Of a stretch of 40,849 nucleotides of DNA, positions 1 through 40,629 are shown in pieces. The stretch covers positions 1 to 40,849 of IMG/VR virus record IMGVR_UViG_2563366924_000005; one strand, given 5' to 3'. Position numbers and translations under genes: made by a program. Every line of letters begins with the position of its first letter. The first letter of the stretch is position 1. This stretch comes from a virus (taxonomy: Duplodnaviria; Heunggongvirae; Uroviricota; Caudoviricetes). The notes beneath the pieces are model-generated. The model saw nothing but the letters and a program-made list of their open reading frames with translations, was not told where the DNA came from and made no database searches.

Positions 1-933
1 ATGGACAACGACAAAATTGATCAACACAGCGACGAAATTGAAGTTGAGAGCGAAGAAAAAGAGCGCGGCAAAAAAATAGAAATAGATGAAGACCGACTCC
101 CCTCCCGGGCGATGGCAATTCATGAGCATATCCGCCAGGATGGTGAAAAAGAGCTGGAACGCGACGCAATGGCGCTACTGTGGTCAGCCATTGCGGCGGG
201 TCTGTCGATGGGCGCTTCGTTACTGGCAAAAGGGATATTTCATGTCGAACTGGAAGGTGTGCCGGGCAGCTTCTTACTGGAGAATCTCGGTTATACCTTT
301 GGTTTTATTATCGTCATAATGGCCCGCCAGCAATTATTTACCGAAAACACCGTGACTGCGGTACTACCCGTCATGCAAAAACCGACAATGAGCAACGTTG
401 GCTTACTTATGCGGTTATGGGGAGTCGTGCTGCTGGGTAATATTCTCGGGACTGGTATTGCTGCGTGGGCATTTGAATATATGCCTATCTTCAATGAAGA
501 AACTCGCGATGCATTTGTCAAAATCGGCATGGATGTGATGAAGAACACCCCCAGCGAGATGTTTGCCAACGCGATCATTTCCGGCTGGCTGATCGCCACT
601 ATGGTATGGATGTTTCCTGCAGCAGGTGCGGCAAAGATTGTGGTGATTATATTGATGACCTGGCTTATTGCCCTGGGTGACACCACCCATATCGTGGTCG
701 GTTCTGTTGAAATCCTCTATCTGGTGTTTAACGGTACGCTGCACTGGAGCGATTTCATCTGGCCCTTCGCACTACCTACTTTAGCGGGGAACATCTGCGG
801 CGGCACCTTTATCTTCGCGTTAATGAGTCATGCACAGATTCGTAACGACATGAGCAACAAGCGTAAAGCAGAAGCACGCCAAAAAGCAGAACGTGCGGAA
901 AACATTAAGAAAAATGATAAAAACCCGGCATAA
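1..933 (+). CDS. yfdC: Formate/nitrite-transporter-family inner membrane protein YfdC (host gene flanking argW)
   Basis: 310-aa ORF from window start with several hydrophobic helices; N-terminus MDNDKIDQHSDEIEVESEEKERGKK recognised from memory as E. coli YfdC; sits immediately upstream of tRNA-Arg as in E. coli. Confidence 0.8.
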   Translation: MDNDKIDQHSDEIEVESEEKERGKKIEIDEDRLPSRAMAIHEHIRQDGEKELERDAMALLWSAIAAGLSMGASLLAKGIFHVELEGVPGSFLLENLGYTFGFIIVIMARQQLFTENTVTAVLPVMQKPTMSNVGLLMRLWGVVLLGNILGTGIAAWAFEYMPIFNEETRDAFVKIGMDVMKNTPSEMFANAIISGWLIATMVWMFPAAGAAKIVVIILMTWLIALGDTTHIVVGSVEILYLVFNGTLHWSDFIWPFALPTLAGNICGGTFIFALMSHAQIRNDMSNKRKAEARQKAERAENIKKNDKNPA

Positions 934-1008
934 ATGGCGAGGGTTTAAGCAATCGAGCGGCAGCGTACTTACCCCGCACTCCATTAGCGGGTATACTCAT
1001 GCCGCATT

Positions 1009-1083
1009 GTCCTCTTAGTTAAATGGATATAACGAGCCCCTCCTAAGGGCTAATTGCAGGTTCGATTCCTGCAGGGGACACTA
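1009..1083 (+). tRNA. argW: tRNA-Arg (anticodon CCU), argW; integration target, forms attL
   Basis: Cloverleaf readable by eye: acceptor GTCCTCT/AGGGGAC, anticodon stem AGCCC/GGGCT with loop CTCCTAA (anticodon CCT), T-arm GCAGG-TTCGATT-CCTGC, discriminator A at 1080; the three bases after it (1081-1083) read CTA, not an encoded CCA. Confidence 0.85.
1054..1069. repeat. 16-nt segment of argW T-arm (ttgcaggttcgattcc), left copy of a direct repeat; candidate att core
   Basis: Exact 16/16 match to 40614-40629 (18/19 including one mismatch to the left); lies in the tRNA 3' half next to the integrase gene. Confidence 0.6.
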
Positions 1084-1244
1084 TTTATCAGTTCGCTCCC
1101 ATCCGTACCAGTACGCAAAATCCCCTGAATATCAAGCCTTCCGTAGATTCACAGTTCGTCATGGTTCGCTTCAGATCGTTGACAGCCGCACTCCGTGACG
1201 GGTAAAAAGTGGATAAAATAATTTTACCCACCGGATTTTTACCC

Positions 1245-2423
1245 ATGCTCACCGTTAAGCAGATTGAAGCAGCAAAGCCGAAAGAAAAACCATACCGCCT
1301 TCTCGATGGTAATGGCCTGTACCTTTATGTCCCTGTATCCGGGAAAAAGGTATGGCAGCTTCGCTACAAGATTGACGGTAAGGAGAAAATCCTGACTGTC
1401 GGAAAATATCCGCTTATGACTTTGCAGGAGGCAAGGGATAAAGCATGGACTGCGAGGAAAGACATCTCGGTTGGCATAGATCCGGTAAAAGCGAAAAAGG
1501 CTTCGTCTAACAACAATTCCTTTAGTGCCATTTACAAGGAATGGTACGAGCACAAGAAGCAAGTGTGGTCTGTAGGGTATGCGACTGAACTTGCCAAAAT
1601 GTTTGATGACGACATTTTACCCATCATCGGCGGTCTCGAGATTCTGGATATTGAGCCGATGCAACTGCTGGAAGTAATCCGCAGATTTGAAGATCGCGGT
1701 GCAATGGAGCGAGCCAACAAAGCCCGCAGAAGATGCGGCGAGGTTTTCCGTTACGCTATTGTCACTGGTAGGGCTAAATATAACCCGGCACCTGACCTTG
1801 CTGACGCCATGAAGGGATACCGCAAGAAAAACTTCCCGTTTCTTCCTGCAGACCAGATCCCGGCATTTAACAAAGCACTGGCAACATTTTCAGGAAGCAT
1901 CGTATCGCTCATTGCGACCAAAGTTTTACGCTACACAGCCCTAAGAACAAAAGAGCTTCGTTCCATGCTATGGAAGAACGTCGATTTTGAAAACAGGATT
2001 ATCACCATCGACGCCAGTGTGATGAAGGGACGCAAAATTCATGTGGTTCCTATGTCAGACCAGGTGGTTGAACTTCTCACTACGCTAAGCTCAATCACTA
2101 AACCAGTATCAGAGTTTGTTTTTGCCGGTCGCAACGATAAGAAGAAGCCAATCTGCGAGAACGCGGTATTGCTTGTGATCAAACAAATTGGCTATGAGGG
2201 TCTGGAAAGCGGTCACGGATTCAGGCATGAATTCAGCACGATTATGAACGAGCACGAATGGCCTGCTGATGCTATTGAAGTGCAACTGGCACATGCCAAC
2301 GGCGGATCTGTGCGCGGGATTTACAACCATGCTCGGTATCTCGATAAGCGCAGAGAAATGATGCAGTGGTGGGCGGACTGGCTTGATGAAAAGGTGGAGT
2401 GTTCCACCTTAACTATCGAATGA
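1245..2423 (+). CDS. intS: Tyrosine integrase, IntS-type (KplE1/CPS-53-like), transcribed away from argW
   Basis: ORF 1209-2423; from MLTVKQIEAAKPKEKPYRLLDGNGLYLYVPVSGKKVWQLRYKIDGKEK the protein matches my recollection of E. coli IntS; C-terminal HxxR...Y catalytic region (GHGFRHEF...RGIYNHARY); ATG at 1245 preferred, GTG at 1209 possible. Confidence 0.85.
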   Translation: MLTVKQIEAAKPKEKPYRLLDGNGLYLYVPVSGKKVWQLRYKIDGKEKILTVGKYPLMTLQEARDKAWTARKDISVGIDPVKAKKASSNNNSFSAIYKEWYEHKKQVWSVGYATELAKMFDDDILPIIGGLEILDIEPMQLLEVIRRFEDRGAMERANKARRRCGEVFRYAIVTGRAKYNPAPDLADAMKGYRKKNFPFLPADQIPAFNKALATFSGSIVSLIATKVLRYTALRTKELRSMLWKNVDFENRIITIDASVMKGRKIHVVPMSDQVVELLTTLSSITKPVSEFVFAGRNDKKKPICENAVLLVIKQIGYEGLESGHGFRHEFSTIMNEHEWPADAIEVQLAHANGGSVRGIYNHARYLDKRREMMQWWADWLDEKVECSTLTIE

Positions 2424-2492
2424 CACAAATCCTTGCAATCCAGTGCAAAGCTTTGTGTAAGAGCATCTTGTTGTTTTAATTAACAAATAAAC

Positions 2493-2519
2493 TTATTTTG
2501 ATTTTAGCAATCAAAATAA
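2493..2519. repeat. Perfect 11-bp inverted repeat (ttattttgatt / aatcaaaataa, 5-nt spacer) between convergent int and tailspike genes
   Basis: Seen directly in the AT-rich 156-bp gap between the int stop (2423) and tailspike stop (2580); possible bidirectional terminator or protein-binding site. Confidence 0.3.
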
Positions 2520-2579
2520 AATATTAACAATAATGCACAAAAAAATCACTTGCAATTTAATTGTAACATCAAATGTTCA

Positions 2580-4475
2580 TTACAATATTCTAACTTCACC
2601 GTATACGCTCAATATTTTATCAGGAACCAGATCGCTTCTACCTTTAATTTGAACATATGGCAAATCATCAGTATTTAATTCCAAATTTGTAGAAAAGAAT
2701 ACTCCACCACCACTCTGGATTGAGCTACTAAATTCAAAGAACTCACCAGACATGAATAACCCTTTCAGTCTTACACTTCCAGACTGATGATTTACAACTA
2801 TGTTCACACTTAATGTCTCAACTGAATTATGAATTGCAGATGTCTTTAGTAACAATGTTGAATTACCAAAATCTATCCACTCAAACCCATATTCACCATC
2901 AAGACCACCTGAAAATTTACCAGCATAATTACCAGTTAATATAGAGTTGACGACATTTCCGCTAACTCCATTTATTTTCTTCCTCTGGTCTATTCTGTGA
3001 TTAACTCCAAAATAACCTTCAGGAACAATTAAGTCTCTGGTACTAGACGCAACAGAGTCATAAAATTCAACCCTTACACCATGACCATAAGTGTTTTCCT
3101 TTGTTTTTAATATCCTCCCAATGTTATCAGCATTTTCAAACCTGTTACTTCCAGAAATAAATATTTCACTAGCTGGCGTATCTGCATACCCAACAAAAAA
3201 CATTGAGTCCTTAGAGATAAAATTTACATAGTTATTTTCAAGTAATGATGAAAATACATAACTACCAAAATAAACACCAACATCATCGACATTTTCGATG
3301 TATGAGTTACATAATTTGAAATCATAAACAGCGGCATTAAATTGTATGCCAACAGTGCAACCTTCAACAGAAATACCATCCATTACAAGCGATGTTACAG
3401 GCCCATCAAATCTATATTGCATTTGGGCATTTGTTGCAATCAGTCTTGTAAATTCGTTTAAATTATGCGCCCCGCTAAAAACAAATCTATCACCCAAATA
3501 TTCCTGCGGATATTCAAAAACAATATTATCCAATTTAAGGTAGTAGTTATTGTGTGAGTGAATACCAAATGATGAGCAATTGCAAAATATATTTTTAATC
3601 TCACACCCATGATGCCAGTCTTGAATCCTTAGGCAGGCTGAACTCAACCTATTATTATCTGTGCTTGATATAATAGAGAAATTTGATAATGAGATATACT
3701 TACTGTAATGTGAATCATCACTAGAACCAAAGTTGCTTACAAGCACACCGTTATCATTATAATATCCACTCTCAAAAAGAGTAATATCTGAAAGCATGTT
3801 GAATACGCAACCGCATCCATCTATAATTTTTTGCTTTGCCCTCTCAAATGTTTCATCGAAATTTTGAGGTATAATTAATGTTTTTTTTATGCCATATACC
3901 TTACCTGGAACTCCAATTATTTTTTTGTTTCCATTAAATGCCTCTTTTATTCCTGCTTGAATGTAGTCAGAGCAGTCAATATTTGATGTGTTCCCATTAA
4001 TGTCTGGCGGTATGAAATCATCAAAAGAAAGTGTTTCCCTTAATTTAATTAATGATGTCGTGCCTTTTGCATTGTTTTCACTCTGAATGAATCCTATATA
4101 TTTTGAACCATCGTTTCCAGACAATCTTTCTTCAAGCTGATCAGGGTCATACTTCAGCACATTAGGAAAATAGAATTGCTGCGCTCCATACGCATCGTAT
4201 ACAGCCATAGAATGGCCTTGCACAGTTACGAATTTGGCAATCTGTCCGTTATATACCGGATACCCGCCAGCGTTAATGATGATTGGTTGCGAAACAGGAA
4301 CGTGAGAGCCGTCTTCGTTCTCTACATAAACCTGAATCTGGTTTTCAGGATTTACCGGGTCAGTGTCAATTTTACCGATATAAATTTTGCCATTGGCTAC
4401 GGCTTTAAAAGAACGCGCCATAGTGAAGAGTTGCGAAGGCATCGATACGATCACATTGGCTGTAATGTCTGTCAT
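2580..4475 (-). CDS. Tailspike protein: P22 gp9-type N-terminal head-binding domain fused to a divergent receptor-binding/depolymerase domain
   Basis: N-terminus [47 protein letters not shown]...[15 protein letters not shown]...NVLKYDPDQ closely matches the recalled P22 tailspike N-terminus; the remaining ~500 residues are unrelated to P22 gp9 and the DNA is visibly AT-rich. Confidence 0.85.
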
Positions 4476-4575
4476 TTAATTTGCTCCAGATACAATGAAT
4501 CGCCGCAGCGTGGCCACGGTGAATTTTGGGCATAAAAAAACCCAGCCGAAGCTGGGTCGTTGCGTTGGTTATCTG

Positions 4576-5454
4576 TCAGTAGTTATGTACTGAAGGAGGT
4601 AATTCTTTATTCTTAAGTCTCATCCATGCGGAAAGATTCGTTGGTCCGTCTGGCTCATTGATATCAACATCTCGTGTGTGATTGATTAAAACGTCTCTCG
4701 CCATTCCGATAACATACGAGAATTCATGACCGTAGTCGTAGCATCTGCCGGAATAGTTCGATTGAATTTGTTTCAGCGCCGGATACAGTTCGCGGAATAA
4801 TGCCTGTGAGCGGTTAGCATAATCCCATAGCCATACAAGGCTGTTTGCTTCTTTTGCAGAAAGCTCGTTGACTTTCCTCTCTTGTTTGCCGATGAACTCT
4901 CCTTCAAGCACTACCCTGTGGATGTACTCTACGGCCAGCGGGATTTGTTCAATTGAAAGTTCATCAATGCTGTCAATACCAAAACGCTGATGAACCATAT
5001 TGTATGCATCGTCATAGCGAAGTCCTTTCTTTCCTACCAGCATGTTTACTGCATCGCGTAGCGGCGTTCTTTCCTCAACAGTGGTTTTCTTGCCTTTCAC
5101 ATACTCGCCATGTTTGCGAATTGAAGGTAGAACTTCTGCTGTTACCCACTTGCGGAATTTGTGCGGGACCGAACCTTTATTGACAGCATCGCGGCAGCGC
5201 AGAACCAATGTATACATACCTGATTCGCTAACAATGCTTAGATTCTGCTCACCACCAAGGGTGTAACTTAAAGTTACTCCCTTTTCATCGTCATCAAGTG
5301 CAGTAAGCGCCTTGCGTGAGTTAGTCAGGGTTAAAGCATCACAAACATCTTTTGCTACAAACCACGGCTCACCGCATTTGTTGATGACGCGGATTTCACT
5401 GTCGCCGAATTTGAAGATGGTGAAATCGTTTTGTGCCTTTGCTATACTTTTCAT
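4576..5454 (-). CDS. ant: Antirepressor Ant (Bro-N/AntA N-terminal domain)
   Basis: ORF 4576-5520; likely start at [11 protein letters not shown] (ATG 5454) with AGGAAA ribosome-binding site; [30 protein letters not shown] is a Bro-N-type motif; immI position next to arc and tailspike as in P22. Confidence 0.75.
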
Positions 5455-5516
5455 GTCAATATTTCCTAATCCGATTTGTTGATACCGAAGCCCTGACTGT
5501 TCCCGCAGTTGGGGCT

Positions 5517-5690
5517 TCAACTTTTTGCTAGATTACCTTTAGAACTATCCCGCCTTAAACTATCCACTAACCGCATTACCATCTCGGTATTTATTGAGCG
5601 ACCATTTTCTTTCGCTGACTTCTCGATTGCTAACTTAACCTCTAATGGGATGCGCAAAGGGTACTTTGGTGCGTCTGACTTGACTATCAT
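5517..5690 (-). CDS. arc: Arc-like ribbon-helix-helix repressor
   Basis: 57 aa from ATG at 5690 with GGAGG 5 nt upstream; ...[29 protein letters not shown] resembles P22 Arc (..REVLDLVRKVAEENGRSVNSEIYQRV..); directly upstream of ant. Confidence 0.75.
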
Positions 5691-5708
5691 ATTACCTCCA
5701 ATCAATTT

Positions 5709-5725
5709 GGTATAACCGTTATACC
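5709..5725. promoter_or_regulatory. 17-bp perfect palindrome (ggtataac-c-gttatacc) in the divergent arc/mnt control region; candidate Mnt/Arc operator
   Basis: Seen directly between the arc start (5690) and mnt start (5779); P22 Mnt is known to bind a 17-bp palindromic operator at the equivalent place. Confidence 0.35.
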
Positions 5726-5778
5726 ATTGTGATCGCAGTGATGCAATAGTAATATCACCAAAATGCTATGGAGGTGGT

Positions 5779-6015
5779 ATGTCACGCGAAGAGCCGCAAA
5801 TAAATATCAGGATTTCCAAAGAGTTAAAGGCAAAGGTTAAAGCCAGGGCGCAACATAACAAGCGTTCCATGAATGCTGAAATAATACAGATTATCGAAGA
5901 TGCTGTTTGTGGTAGATCGCTTAATAGCAATGAATTTGCTCAGAAAGAGGCTGACAAATTCAGGGATGCGCTGATTGAAACACTGAAAACCATGTATGGT
6001 AAGGATGCAAAATGA
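5779..6015 (+). CDS. mnt: Mnt-like ribbon-helix-helix maintenance repressor
   Basis: 78 aa; MSREEPQINIRISKELKAKVKARAQHNKRSMNAEIIQIIEDA resembles P22 Mnt (MARDDPHFNFRMPMEVREKLKFRAEANGRSMNSELLQIVQDA); strong GGAGGTGG ribosome-binding site; divergent from arc. Confidence 0.8.
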   Translation: MSREEPQINIRISKELKAKVKARAQHNKRSMNAEIIQIIEDAVCGRSLNSNEFAQKEADKFRDALIETLKTMYGKDAK

Positions 6016-6221
6016 ATAAAAAACAGTTTATTAAGTCAAAAACATCAAGCAAGGAAGAGCTAGAGAAAGAGCTAAACTCCCTGAAATATGCTCTGTGTCT
6101 GGTTTACTCAAGACTGCCAATGGAAGATAAAAACGCTATTTACAATGAAATGATTAGCAGCCTTGATTTTAACGATAGAGACCTAGCATCCCACCTCAAC
6201 AGCTTCCGCGTCCCTGAGTAA
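6012..6221 (+). CDS. Hypothetical protein (69 aa), translationally coupled to mnt
   Basis: ATGA start/stop overlap with mnt; AT-rich; no recognisable motif. Confidence 0.4.
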   Translation: MNKKQFIKSKTSSKEELEKELNSLKYALCLVYSRLPMEDKNAIYNEMISSLDFNDRDLASHLNSFRVPE

Positions 6222-6381
6222 TTCTGTTGCGGATTTGCTTCTTGCGGTGGTTTAGGCTGGAGAGCTTGGCTTCTGCTTCCGATATTTGCGCATCCAGATC
6301 TTTAAGTTCAAGATCTGAAAGTCGCTGGTCAAGCAGGGTTTGATTCAACTCGATGTTGTTCAGGCGTTCTTCTATGGTCAT
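6196..6381 (-). CDS. Hypothetical coiled-coil protein (61 aa)
   Basis: ORF with AAGGT ribosome-binding site upstream of ATG 6381; heptad-like sequence LSDLELKDLDAQISEAEAKLSSL; may be a shadow ORF. Confidence 0.25.
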   Translation of the reverse strand: MTIEERLNNIELNQTLLDQRLSDLELKDLDAQISEAEAKLSSLNHRKKQIRNRITQGRGSC

Positions 6382-6406
6382 ATTGTTACCTTAGTGGGAG
6401 ATTAGT

Positions 6407-6631
6407 ATGGTTTCTGCTATTTTATCGGTGCTGCTAGCGTCATTATTCATCGGAGTGGTGTTGATCTCCCCGATGCCAATAATATCAATATTATTCATCT
6501 TGATGATCGGCTGGTTGTGGCTTAAAAAGGCAAGAAACGATTATTTTTTATCCATAAGAGATAAGCAATTGGAGCTTTTCCGCTTGGGGTACACTGGCGA
6601 CTTGCCATTCTTAACATACCAAAAAAAGTAA
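6407..6631 (+). CDS. Small membrane protein (74 aa, two predicted TM helices)
   Basis: Hydrophobic segments LSVLLASLFIGVVLI and IISILFILMIGWLWL; followed by a rho-independent terminator; last gene of the mnt-side transcription unit. Confidence 0.45.
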   Translation: MVSAILSVLLASLFIGVVLISPMPIISILFILMIGWLWLKKARNDYFLSIRDKQLELFRLGYTGDLPFLTYQKK

Positions 6632-6637
6632 TAATCA

Positions 6638-6659
6638 AGCCGGGTCACTCCGGCTTTTT
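6638..6659 (+). terminator. Rho-independent terminator closing the mnt-side operon
   Basis: Stem agccgg/ccggct with 6-nt loop followed by TTTT, seen directly. Confidence 0.5.
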
Positions 6660-7010
6660 GATATGTCGCTCGCAGAACTCAACAAGCCTGCTCATTAAGT
6701 AGCAGTAAGTCTCGTTGGCTCTTCCTGGTTCAACATCAACACCGACCCTTGAGCAGATATCGAATGCCATGTGAGCGCACTCATGGGCAATGGTAGATAG
6801 TTTGCCATTGAACACGCCTATCACATGCAAAACACCATTCTCGCTGCTCATTGTATGAGACGCTCCGTTGGCATCCGAGTCCTGCACGTCCACGCCAAGT
6901 TTTTGATGCAGGCGTTGCCATTCTGGAAAGTCTCTGCAAAACACAATCGTACCGCTCTCAAAGAGCGGTACGAGCATCTTTGGTACGTTTCCAATGTTTA
7001 CTTTTTTCAT
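6645..7010 (-). CDS. Hypothetical protein with HExxH motif (putative zinc metallopeptidase-like), 121 aa
   Basis: Protein-like translation containing HECAHMAFD; weak GGA ribosome-binding site; overlaps the N-terminal extension of plus-strand ORF 6825-7361, so one of the two readings is wrong. Confidence 0.4.
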   Translation of the reverse strand: MKKVNIGNVPKMLVPLFESGTIVFCRDFPEWQRLHQKLGVDVQDSDANGASHTMSSENGVLHVIGVFNGKLSTIAHECAHMAFDICSRVGVDVEPGRANETYCYLMSRLVEFCERHIKKPE

Positions 7011-7040
7011 GGTATCCTGCGAAAAACTAAGGAGGTTGGT

Positions 7041-7361
7041 GTGTATATATCGCTATCTACCATTTTTTTCATCTGCTTAGCTATTTGGATTTTAAGAATA
7101 TGGCAGGATTGCTCTGTCAGCCATGCTGCTGCGGTGAGAAATAAAAACGCCCTCATAAAAGAAGCTGAAAACGTTGTCTTATCAATGGATCACCTTTCAT
7201 GGACCGAGATGACTACAGGGCAACAAGAGGTTTATGAGTGTGCGATTGAGCGGTTAAGGCTGCTTAAATCGTACAAAAAGAACCACGCACCCGACTCATT
7301 CCCATTCCTGAAAGAATGGCCGAGATGGTATGACCCGAAAAAAGCAACCATCAACCGCTAA
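7041..7361 (+). CDS. Membrane-anchored hypothetical protein (about 106 aa) at the sieA position
   Basis: GTG at 7041 lies 5 nt after a strong AAGGAGG site; N-terminal TM helix ISLSTIFFICLAIWILRIW; position between gp16 and mnt is where P22 carries sieA. Confidence 0.45.
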   Translation: MYISLSTIFFICLAIWILRIWQDCSVSHAAAVRNKNALIKEAENVVLSMDHLSWTEMTTGQQEVYECAIERLRLLKSYKKNHAPDSFPFLKEWPRWYDPKKATINR

Positions 7362-7369
7362 CCAACTTT

Positions 7370-9376
7370 TTACTGCTGGGCTTTCTCACTTGAAGCCTGA
7401 ATTAGAGGTGTAAGAGTTTCAGATACCCGTCTGATCGCTCTATCATAAGCAGTACTTCCTTTTGGCGTGTTTGCTAACTTTAGTAATGCGTTCCTCATCG
7501 CGCGTGACTCATAGCCCCTGCCAGCCATACCGATACCAGCTCCAACTGCCGCAACTTTTGCAAACATTGGATTTGTAACAGACGCAAGAGCTGTTATCAG
7601 CGCTGCTGGACCAGCTACCATTTGCCCTGTTAGTGGGCTTGCGGCAGCTGTAGCTGCCTGTCTAGTGGAATCAAGATATTTCATTATCCCATCAAGCTGT
7701 TTCCCATGCTCTCCTCTGAAGAACGTCTCAGCCTGCTTCCGATTCCTTTTCATTTCATTAATAAACTTCTCAACGCTAAGCTTTCCTGAATCGCTTGTCG
7801 CCTTATCCATTGCACGCTGAACAAGTGCTGCTCTAGCATTTTGACGCCCACTATCATCAAGCAATCGATAAAGTTGCGCCCTTTCCGCTGGGCTTTGGCT
7901 GAATACTAGTTTAGTGACATCTTCTGGCGTTGTTTTACCACTCTGAATAGCTTTTTGGACACGTGTATTGCTCATCATGTCGTTGAACTTTGCCCAAGAA
8001 CGATCAACACGCGACATGTTTTGCGCTTCCTTCGCACCTAGTTTTGCGCCAACCGCTTTTTTCATGTCTGTTGTGTATGCGTTATAAACAGACTGCGCAG
8101 CTTTCTCCAGCGTATCTCTATCGACCTCGTCAGGTGCTGCCATAAAGCGCTTACGTAAGTTTGTACGGTTTTCTCTAGCTAATTGCAGGTTATTTGGACC
8201 GCTGGTGATGTCATTTCTAAACTGTTGAAGGACAGAAACAGCTGAGCGGTCTTGCGATACTCCTGGGCGAGTTAACTTGGAAATCTGCTCATCAATTGCT
8301 TTCACTGTTCCAGTGATGTCAACAGGAGTATCCCCCATCAAACTGATGATCCTGTCGTACCGCTTGCCAGCAGCCTGAATAAATTGCTGCTGACCACGAG
8401 TAGCTGATTGGTAAAGTTGTGCGTCAGATATTCCACCAACATTATCGCTAAATGTTCTAACTAAATCTTCCCTGGCCTTTTGCTGTGCATTTCTTATCCC
8501 ACCTGTTCCGGCTATTGGGATTCGCTCAGCCATAGCTCGTGCTTGCTTACCAATATTTGTTCCCGGTTCCACAAGATCTGTTGTCATCAGTGGCAAGTTG
8601 TTCTGCTTGGCAAAGTCAATCTGAGCTTGTTTTTCAGGAGCAATCTTACCCATAGCAGAACGAGACACTGCGCTTGCGGTGTTTTCTACACCCTTCAGTA
8701 CCCCACCAAGACCAGCAGAAATTGCAGTTTGAACTGGATTAACATTCTCACCGCCAGCGATCTTAGTGGCACCCTGTAAAGCTAAATCAGTAGCGCCTGA
8801 TTTTAGTGTTGCACCTACAACAGACGCAGCTCTACCTGCTGGAGTGAATGCAAGAGCATTTGCCAAGAATGACGTTATATCCTGCGGTGACAAACCAGGC
8901 TTGTTAAGTGCATATTCCCCTGAAGGAAGGGTGACTATGGAATTTCCCTTCTCATCCTTCCGGATTTTCCCGCCAATACTTTGCAGTATTTTCTCCTGTG
9001 AAGCGTCTGAACCAAATAGCTGCCCCAATCCAGCACGCAGCGCATCAGTGCTTAAGCTATTAAGCTCTGGAGCAGACCCAACATTTTGCAGTCTCTCCAT
9101 TTCTGGTGTCATTCGGCTTTCACCGGTAACGGCATCGCGCATTGCAGCACCTAAAACAGCCCCTTGCTCAGCAGAGCGATCTAGTCCTTCCTTCTGCTGA
9201 GTGGCAATCTGTGCATATCCTGATGCAAGTGAGTTGTCTGCTGGCGATTGCTGAACACCTTGTTGTGTTGGTGCTGACTGACCAGCAAAATACTCATCAA
9301 TGGCGGTGCCAATATCTTCGGTGCTCGTACCATCAGGAAAGGTAAATGTCTTACCGTTTGCAGTTACTTTCATCAT
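7370..9376 (-). CDS. Ejection/DNA-transfer protein, P22 gp16 homolog
   Basis: 668-aa ORF in the P22 gp16 slot (gp7-gp20-gp16 order conserved); Gly/Ala/Gln-rich composition typical of ejection proteins. Confidence 0.7.
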
Positions 9377-10788
9377 TCCACCGTAAATTGAATGCCTGAT
9401 TTTGAGGTATATGATCCAACCTGATTCCGTGGTTCTCCTGAAGGTGTCGAATCTTGTGCTGGCGCTGCGTCAGTATTCATTGACATATACCGCTTAACGG
9501 CACTCCCCAATGATTCACCTTTTTTAACATCCAACCCCAATATCTGACCGCCATTACGCGATTGTCCAGGGTTGCCATTCGCGCTCATCCACTCAGCTTT
9601 AAACTCATTAAACTGCGCGTTTCGTCGCTCAAGGTTTGCCATTGCATCAAGCCATCTTGCGACAGTCTCAGGGTTATCCATGTCAGTTGGTGCACCCTGA
9701 CGAACGATCTCAACGTCTTTATCCGTTGCTGGGCCGGGAGGTAGGAATTTAAGAACCTGACTGTTAACAAGGGCATTTTGGCGAATGCGCAAATCACGCA
9801 ATGTCGTATCGCTTCCGGTAAGTTTTGCGAACATGTTCTGTGCGTTACCGAACAAACCTGTCGTTGGTTTTTCTGCTCTGAACTGTTGAGCAAGCGCACT
9901 CATAGAATTGGCTGAGTTTGATGATGCTGTGGCATTGTTTACAGCCGTCTCGATGCCTTTTTCCATATTTACTGACAGCTTAGGTGCTTCGCTAATCAAC
10001 TGCTGAGCCTTTTCCTGCGCTTGCTGCATCTTAAACCCGAACTCTTGCTGATCCAGAGCCAAGCGTTGTGCTGCGATATTGTGCCCAGTCATTGCTGACT
10101 GATAGGAAAGGTTTTGCCCTCTCGCCTGAAGTGCTTCACCAGCCTGATTGCTGCGGATTGTCTCTGCCAGCCTGCCTCTGTCAATTTCACGACCAGCCAT
10201 CTTATCCTGAACAGCAAACGCCTTTTCTGGTCCAAGCGCACCGAGAGACATAGTAGTCAGCATGTGTGATAGCTGCTCTGGATTCTGGATACCTGTCTGA
10301 ATCATCCAGTCAGCATTCGCCCCCACGCGATTTAACCTGTCCTTGTTGTCAGTAATGAATTTACTGTAGGCTTCCGGTCCCTGAGAAAGAGCGACGTTAG
10401 CCCTCATGGCTAAATCGCCCATATCGTTGCGTTGCTGATCATTAAGACCGGAAAACGCCTGTTGTGCCTGTGCAACAAACGCTGGATTTTCCTGGGCAAA
10501 CTTAAATAGTCCCGATGGATCACCAGAAGCCCATGCATCAGCGTGAACCTTATTGAACGCACTAATCGCTTTCTGTTGCTGTTCCTGATTGTAAATATCA
10601 GCAACTCCAGCCAGACCACGTAACGCGGTCAGACCAACGTTATTTGCACCTGAGCGAGCCAGTTCATTGTTTTCGCGGATCAGACCAAGCGTTGCGTTAA
10701 TGTCGCTTGCCTTTGGCGCATTCTCATTTTGCGTACCGATGCCAGCCAGAAAACCACCAGAATTAATACCCTGTTGCCACGTAGCCAT
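9373..10788 (-). CDS. Ejection protein, P22 gp20 homolog
   Basis: 471 aa, the same length as P22 gp20; synteny; overlapping stop/start with gp16. Confidence 0.7.
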
Positions 10789-24617: not shown

Positions 24618-24692
24618 TGGCGGGACAGCGTGGACTCGAACCACGATAAGAAGGTTAACAGCCTTCCGTAATGACCTTTATACGACTGACCC
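24618..24692 (-). tRNA. tRNA-Asn-like gene (anticodon GTT) between Q and the lysis genes
   Basis: Minus-strand read GGGTCAG-TC-GTAT-AAAGGTCA-TTAC-G-GAAGG-CTGTTAA-CCTTC-TTAT-CGTGG-TTCGAGT-CCACG-CTGTCCC-G-CCA: perfect anticodon and T arms, U33, GG in D-loop, encoded CCA; one T-T mismatch each in acceptor and D stems; 4-nt variable loop. Confidence 0.5.
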
Positions 24693-40613: not shown

Positions 40614-40629
40614 TTGCAGGTTCGATTCC
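40614..40629. repeat. Second copy of the argW T-arm 16-mer (ttgcaggttcgattcc), 19 bp upstream of the torI start codon
   Basis: Exact match to 1054-1069; the flanking sequence is not tRNA-like (followed by ctattcggagatagcactc-ATG). Confidence 0.6.

Follow-up and report, generated by a model that had tools for sequence, protein, structure and literature searches.

The bodies of tailspikes set the host range of phages, and they find use both as reagents for detecting particular serogroups and as depolymerase therapeutics. Several described systems can be set beside the gene analysed here. The tailspike gp14 of Sf6 (PDB 7sg7, 2vbk), a protein of 623 aa with the catalytic pair E366/D399, is built from an anchor, a neck, a right-handed beta-helix and a C-terminal beta domain, and its gene stands beside int. 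The HK620 tailspike (PDB 2vji, 4xop) is specific for the O18A1 O-antigen. CUS-3 (CP000711) is an argW-integrated P22-like prophage with the layout attL-int-tailspike(-)-ant(-), and the body of its tailspike is an endosialidase that acts on the K1 capsule. The modularity of anchor and receptor-binding domain is known for Lederbergvirus prophages, whose receptor-binding domains cluster by O-serogroup (PMC10408124).

Here we analyse a tailspike gene in a stretch of 40,849 nucleotides, hereafter the window, which is IMG/VR virus record IMGVR_UViG_2563366924_000005. That receptor-binding domains are swapped behind a conserved anchor is well established; what is new in this gene is the body, a rare and uncharacterised module. 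We consider it likely that the gene is the functional tailspike of an intact P22-like (Lederbergvirus-type) argW prophage of ~39.6 kb, and that it carries a foreign body that recognises, and probably cleaves, a polysaccharide.

The tailspike gene and its prophage

The first-pass annotation of the window had placed the tailspike at 2580-4475, and these coordinates proved exact: they enclose one uninterrupted minus-strand ORF, which encodes 631 aa followed by a stop codon (Table 1). The identical database protein is titled [quoted passage not shown], and a search of the available literature by its accessions found no mention of it. The 90%-identity cluster of the tailspike contains 75 sequences, all of them from E. 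coli drafts or read assemblies. A ribosome-binding site, GGAG, lies 7 nt ahead of the ATG, and the leader also includes a terminator-like hairpin at 4539-4558, 3' of ant. At the other end of the gene, the left 35 bp of the spacer that separates the stop codons of intS and the tailspike are conserved in E. coli, with a weak terminator-like hairpin at 2431-2450.

Table 1. Coordinates of the tailspike gene, its parts and its neighbours in the window
Feature	Position	Strand	Remark
intS-type integrase	1209..2423	+	Conserved left flank of cassette
Spacer, intS stop to tailspike stop	2424..2579	.	GC 0.256; 156 bp
AT-rich foreign cassette: body and ~120 bp of 3' non-coding DNA	2459..4118	.	GC 0.326
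Tailspike ORF, complete	2580..4475	-	Identical to WP_001549436.1 / ELD69589.1
Predicted C-terminal beta domain, residues 540-631	2583..2858	-	Ends in family-conserved G-E-x-R motif
Predicted irregular distal region, residues 448-539, with the lowest-confidence loop	2859..3134	-	pLDDT 48-82
Predicted N-terminal cap helix and right-handed parallel beta-helix body, residues 151-447	3135..4025	-	AlphaFold2 model
Candidate catalytic centre E371, Y392, E394	3294..3365	-	Invariant in 51 family members
Linker/neck with recombination junction, residues 114-150	4026..4136	-	Homology end 4119-4138; pLDDT 54-59
P22-type head-binding (tail-docking) domain, residues 1-113	4137..4475	-	Pfam PF09008
Upstream leader of tailspike	4476..4575	-	Hairpin and ribosome-binding site
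P22-type antirepressor (Bro-N + P22_AR_C)	4576..5520	-	Conserved right-flank neighbour

The window is a segment of the E. coli chromosome that begins with yfdC, followed by tRNA-Arg (argW) and intS. A 16-bp att core, TTGCAGGTTCGATTCC, which in CUS-3 carries the annotation attL, lies at 1054-1069 and again at 40614-40629; the repeat therefore delimits an element of ~39.6 kb at argW, both ends of which are inside the window. The P22-type virion module is complete, with terminase, portal, coat, gp10, gp7 and a gp20-type translocase, and ant and Arc-type regulators are also present. The tailspike gene is located at the end of this module, beside the immI/ant region. The layout is that of CUS-3, which differs in having neuO between int and the tailspike gene.

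Other features of the element were observed. A tRNA-Asn gene (anticodon GTT) at 24618-24692 (-) lies inside the prophage and is therefore phage-borne. The 668-aa ORF at 7370-9376 (-) gave no Pfam match in our search, whereas the precomputed annotation of the identical locus assigns it to PF26808 (Phage_P22_gp16); the discrepancy is probably due to a difference in library version. A moron-like region (5517-7361), made up of clustered small ORFs in both orientations, separates ant/arc from the genes for the ejection proteins and includes a 74-aa ORF with a hydrophobic, membrane-like appearance (6407-6631) and a 121-aa ORF (6645-7010). A contig assembled from SRR15075498 (L002) carries, at 116-8011, the same tailspike and int, followed directly by early-left genes (Ead/Ea22, anti-RecBCD, Kil). 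The order is the one that the phage has when excised and circular, and it suggests either induction in that sample or assembly across att.

The head-binding domain

The N-terminus had been described in the first-pass annotation as near-identical to that of P22 gp9. The P22-type domain itself was confirmed, as residues 1-113 match positions 1-113 of the 113-position profile of Pfam PF09008 (Head_binding) with an E value of 1.2e-66. The near-identity does not hold, because only 85 of 113 residues (75%) are shared with P22 gp9, and Sf6 gp14 is closer, with 103 of 113 (91%). A search of PDB likewise returned Sf6 gp14 as the best solved relative of the N-terminus (7sg7, residues 1-119), followed by the P22 gp9 entries. 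The domain is 92-94% identical to those of CUS-3 and phage Gally, and ~97% identical to that of P0061, a common 638-aa tailspike of E. coli and Salmonella. Residues 1-113 would serve to dock the spike onto the phage tail.

Exchange of an AT-rich cassette

The part of the gene beyond the anchor had been called AT-rich, and its composition bears this out far past chance. The GC content of 2459-4118 is 0.326, compared with a mean of 0.473 (sd 0.03, minimum 0.407) in 3,587 same-size windows elsewhere in the stretch, corresponding to a z of -4.85. GC3 is 0.437 in codons 1-119 and 0.258 in codons 120-631; the shift is thus located at synonymous sites, and amino-acid content is not its sole cause. 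Some dip is typical of the class, since other E. coli P22-type bodies also have a low GC3 of 0.28-0.36. In the relatives of the body, the module has a GC of 0.41-0.44, near that of its own flanks, as against 0.336 in the window copy, which indicates that none of the sampled relatives is the direct donor.

The shift in GC is abrupt and falls at the domain boundary. Homology to E. coli DNA stops on the left at ~2458, 35 bp beyond the intS stop, and resumes on the right at 4119-4138, enclosing a cassette of ~1.66 kb. No match to 2459-4118 was found in 5,426 complete E. coli genomes by megablast or by sensitive blastn. CUS-3 shows the same homology breakpoint (window 4137), with an anchor 92.7% identical to that of the window and a body unrelated in sequence.

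Exchange can be seen directly in a comparison with a sister prophage, that of E. coli CAVP773 (NZ_CM176349.1). Its DNA is 99.05% identical to the window over 4138-6975, which covers the head-binding region, ant and arc, and its intS is 96.5% identical, but nothing matches between intS and the head-binding region, and its tailspike body is unrelated to that of the window (BLASTP E 0.96). A second locus (L001) has the same body as the window, with 97.5% identity over 1-4908, and a diverged ant region. These comparisons demonstrate that the body and its 3' spacer move as a unit between conserved flanks. As a natural case of cassette exchange, the CAVP773/window pair is unusually clean, and its breakpoints are defined. 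The locus in CAVP773 (708-2501) encodes an unrelated 589-aa tailspike body, and an extra 68-aa ORF lies between intS and the tailspike gene.

The earlier suggestion of a horizontally acquired module is thus borne out by the compositional shift, the sharp breakpoints and the unrelated body between near-identical flanks in CAVP773. The description of the tailspike as chimeric was correct in that an anchor is joined to an unrelated body; however, this is no anomaly but the normal state of all P22-type tailspikes, and the case in the window matches the modularity described for Lederbergvirus prophages (PMC10408124). The cassette was probably gained by recombination, bounded on one side by the conserved sequence that encodes the head-binding domain and on the other by the 3' end of intS. 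The "boundary sequence" bsq1 of CUS-3 was considered as the recombination site and rejected, since it lies upstream of the gene and not at the intragenic junction.

The AT-richness could alternatively result from relaxed selection, if the gene were a remnant decaying inside a defective prophage; some members of the 90% cluster are indeed truncated (197-405 aa). We give this explanation hardly any credence. The 631-aa ORF is intact and is kept at 97-100% in independent E. coli assemblies, and homologues at 36-53% identity retain full length. The prophage has its full virion module and both att cores, the GC shift coincides sharply with the domain boundary, and the SRR15075498 contig has the excised or circular gene order.

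Sequence relatives of the receptor-binding body

The first-pass annotation had found no resemblance of the body to P22 gp9, and our searches agree. No significant match to P22 gp9 was detected beyond the anchor, as only residues 1-115 align and the second HMMER domain scores -1.5. The body alone found nothing significant among the PDB sequences (best E 1.8), and in the PDB searches, with the sequence and with a profile, matches were confined to the anchor and to an N-terminal cap that is generic among beta-helix proteins, those of the profile to the cap region. Sf6 gp14, which shares the overall architecture, has no significant sequence similarity past ~residue 119; the structural match is at the level of fold only (TM about 0.4-0.47, 11-13% identity), and its catalytic pair is not alignable to the body in the window. 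The body of HK620 is ~10% identical (TM 0.31-0.38), and its O-antigen specificity is not transferable.

The body is also rare among phages and bacteria. In 50,697 phage records, no relative above ~25% identity was found; the matches were to Vibrio phage tail proteins and one Proteus phage. A word-indexed search returned one near-identical cluster, followed by relatives of at most 53% identity, and an exhaustive phmmer search of 1.84 billion cluster representatives yielded 79 proteins at E <= 1e-3, 42 of them at E <= 1e-30. When 185,579 species-representative genomes were scanned with a tighter family alignment, relatives were found only in Xenorhabdus ehlersii, a Lentisphaeria MAG and a Paenibacillus, and IMG/VR supplied three further loci of the family. 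A profile search with the full-length tailspike alignment gained almost nothing, as it was flooded by matches to the head-binding domain. No near-identity to a characterised tailspike emerged: outside its own 90% cluster, the nearest protein is at most 53% identical and is uncharacterised.

The relatives carry differing N-termini. Besides a P22-like prophage in Xenorhabdus, their contexts are a contractile-tail (myovirus) baseplate module and a T4-like phage of 154 kb that has several spikes; in these two, the module follows a different adaptor. The closest full-length architectural twin is the uncharacterised WP_244208742.1 of Xenorhabdus ehlersii, which combines a PF09008 anchor with a homologous body, 48-49% identical over residues 120-631, and is encoded in the P22-like prophage. 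It belongs to a different genus, and the GC of its module is 0.41, near that of its flanks, in contrast to the AT-rich copy in the window. Directly downstream of this tailspike gene lies an Acyl_transf_3 gene (9053-10114 of locus L011), whereas the window has the 156-bp spacer at this place. The placement of the Acyl_transf_3 gene resembles that of oac in Sf6, a layout of O-antigen modification and serotype conversion. The body of P0061 is a distant homologue, with 22% identity over 293 aa and a pairwise E of 2e-11. In contrast to the body in the window, P0061 is far commoner, occurring in hundreds of contigs, and the two diverge fully after ~residue 400.

Predicted fold and candidate active site

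An AlphaFold2 model of the monomer, built on a 27-sequence alignment, has a pLDDT of 87.4 and a pTM of 0.78. In the model, a short helical neck leads into a cap helix, and a long series of short beta-strands follows (residues ~185-447, pLDDT 90-98); the distal part beyond them is irregular, and the chain ends in a C-terminal beta domain. A beta-helix had been put forward as the fold to look for, and the model shows the body to be a right-handed parallel beta-helix. Residues ~150 to 631 would form this beta-helix together with the C-terminal beta domain, presumably as a trimer, as parts of a spike.

A Pfam search of the protein reached no catalytic family. PF12708 (Pect-lyase_RHGA_epim, pectate-lyase-like) had no match in the protein at E <= 1, while it was matched by 9 of 24 relatives, with E values down to 4e-12, only via the N-terminal cap region. 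The structural neighbours do not distinguish between a hydrolase, a lyase and a binder.

Conservation points to a candidate active site. Only eight positions are invariant when 51 family members, with identities down to 21%, are aligned: N338, L339, E371, Y392, E394, Y517, T545 and R629. E371 (codon 3363-3365) lies in the motif SVEG, and Y392 (3300-3302) and E394 (3294-3296) lie in the motif YIEN. The glutamates lie on consecutive high-confidence strands with a spacing of 23 residues, or about one helix rung, and both motifs are also present in the distant body of P0061. The conservation and the rung spacing suggest that E371 and E394 are the likely catalytic residues. Two carboxylates that are invariant from Paenibacillus to E. 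coli fit catalytic residues better than glycan-specific contacts. From the predicted fold and the two invariant glutamates, we infer that the body is probably a depolymerase, in which E371 and E394 on adjacent rungs would be the likely agents of cleavage.

The body might instead be a receptor binder without enzymatic activity, comparable to an adhesin-like beta-helix. This seems improbable, as binding alone would hardly explain why a pair of glutamates and a tyrosine, placed on adjacent rungs, stay invariant in 51 homologues. In addition, to our knowledge, almost all solved P22-type tailspikes, including those of P22, Sf6 and HK620, are enzymes that destroy their receptors.

More tentatively, the body may represent an undescribed carbohydrate-active enzyme family, although we would not yet favour this view. 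Such a family would be marked by a beta-helix with Glu-x22-Glu on adjacent rungs, would count no solved or characterised protein among its members, would extend across podoviruses, myoviruses and bacterial phyla, and in E. coli would set the receptor specificity for a rare, as yet unassigned O or K serogroup.

The receptor of the body

The depolymerase that we favour would recognise, and probably cleave, a polysaccharide on the host surface; its most probable target is the O-antigen of an E. coli serogroup that is uncommon. Two observations count towards this reading: the Acyl_transf_3 layout in Xenorhabdus, and the clustering of Lederbergvirus receptor-binding domains by O-serogroup (PMC10408124).

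The organisation of int, tailspike and ant is identical in CUS-3, where the body is capsule-specific, and members of the family occur in the genomes of Paenibacillus and Lentisphaeria, in which an enterobacterial O-antigen is impossible as a target. A body directed at a capsular (K-antigen) or other exopolysaccharide, as in the endosialidase tailspike of CUS-3, would account for both facts. However, most of the characterised receptor-binding domains of Lederbergvirus follow the O-serogroup (PMC10408124), the gene next to the Xenorhabdus homologue is placed like an O-antigen acetylase, and known capsule depolymerases are similar to the body in shared fold only. We therefore regard a capsular or exopolysaccharide target as unlikely, and the O-antigen as the more probable of the two.

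Colanic acid was also considered, because the body alone matches phrog_8280 with an E value of 1.1e-83, and this profile, the best PHROG match, is labelled "tail spike protein with colonic acid degradation activity". The profile is a heterogeneous one of full-length P22-type tailspikes, however, and it is also matched by the bodies of P0061 and of another tailspike, P0039, whose specificities are presumably different. The one colanidase with experimental verification in our comparison is gp150 of phi92 (PMC13450770). It belongs to phrog_6117, has no BLASTP similarity to the body (best E 0.61), and shares with it only the beta-helix tailspike fold, its structure (PDB 6e0v) ranking 45th in Foldseek with a TM of 0.30. 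A literature search for the phrase of the label found no paper using it. Given this and the comparison with gp150, the label of phrog_8280 is unsupported, and a colanic-acid depolymerase is very improbable as an account of the body. An O-antigen depolymerase is still the reading that we prefer.

Assignment of the glycan would add a new specificity to the catalogue of E. coli tailspikes, and possibly a new enzyme family; the value of the body in the window lies in these additions and not in a new principle. A body related to that of P0061, at 68.5% identity, is present in the isolated phage vB_EcoP_P64441 (PQ847473.1, 32089-33579), which could give an experimental handle on the superfamily.
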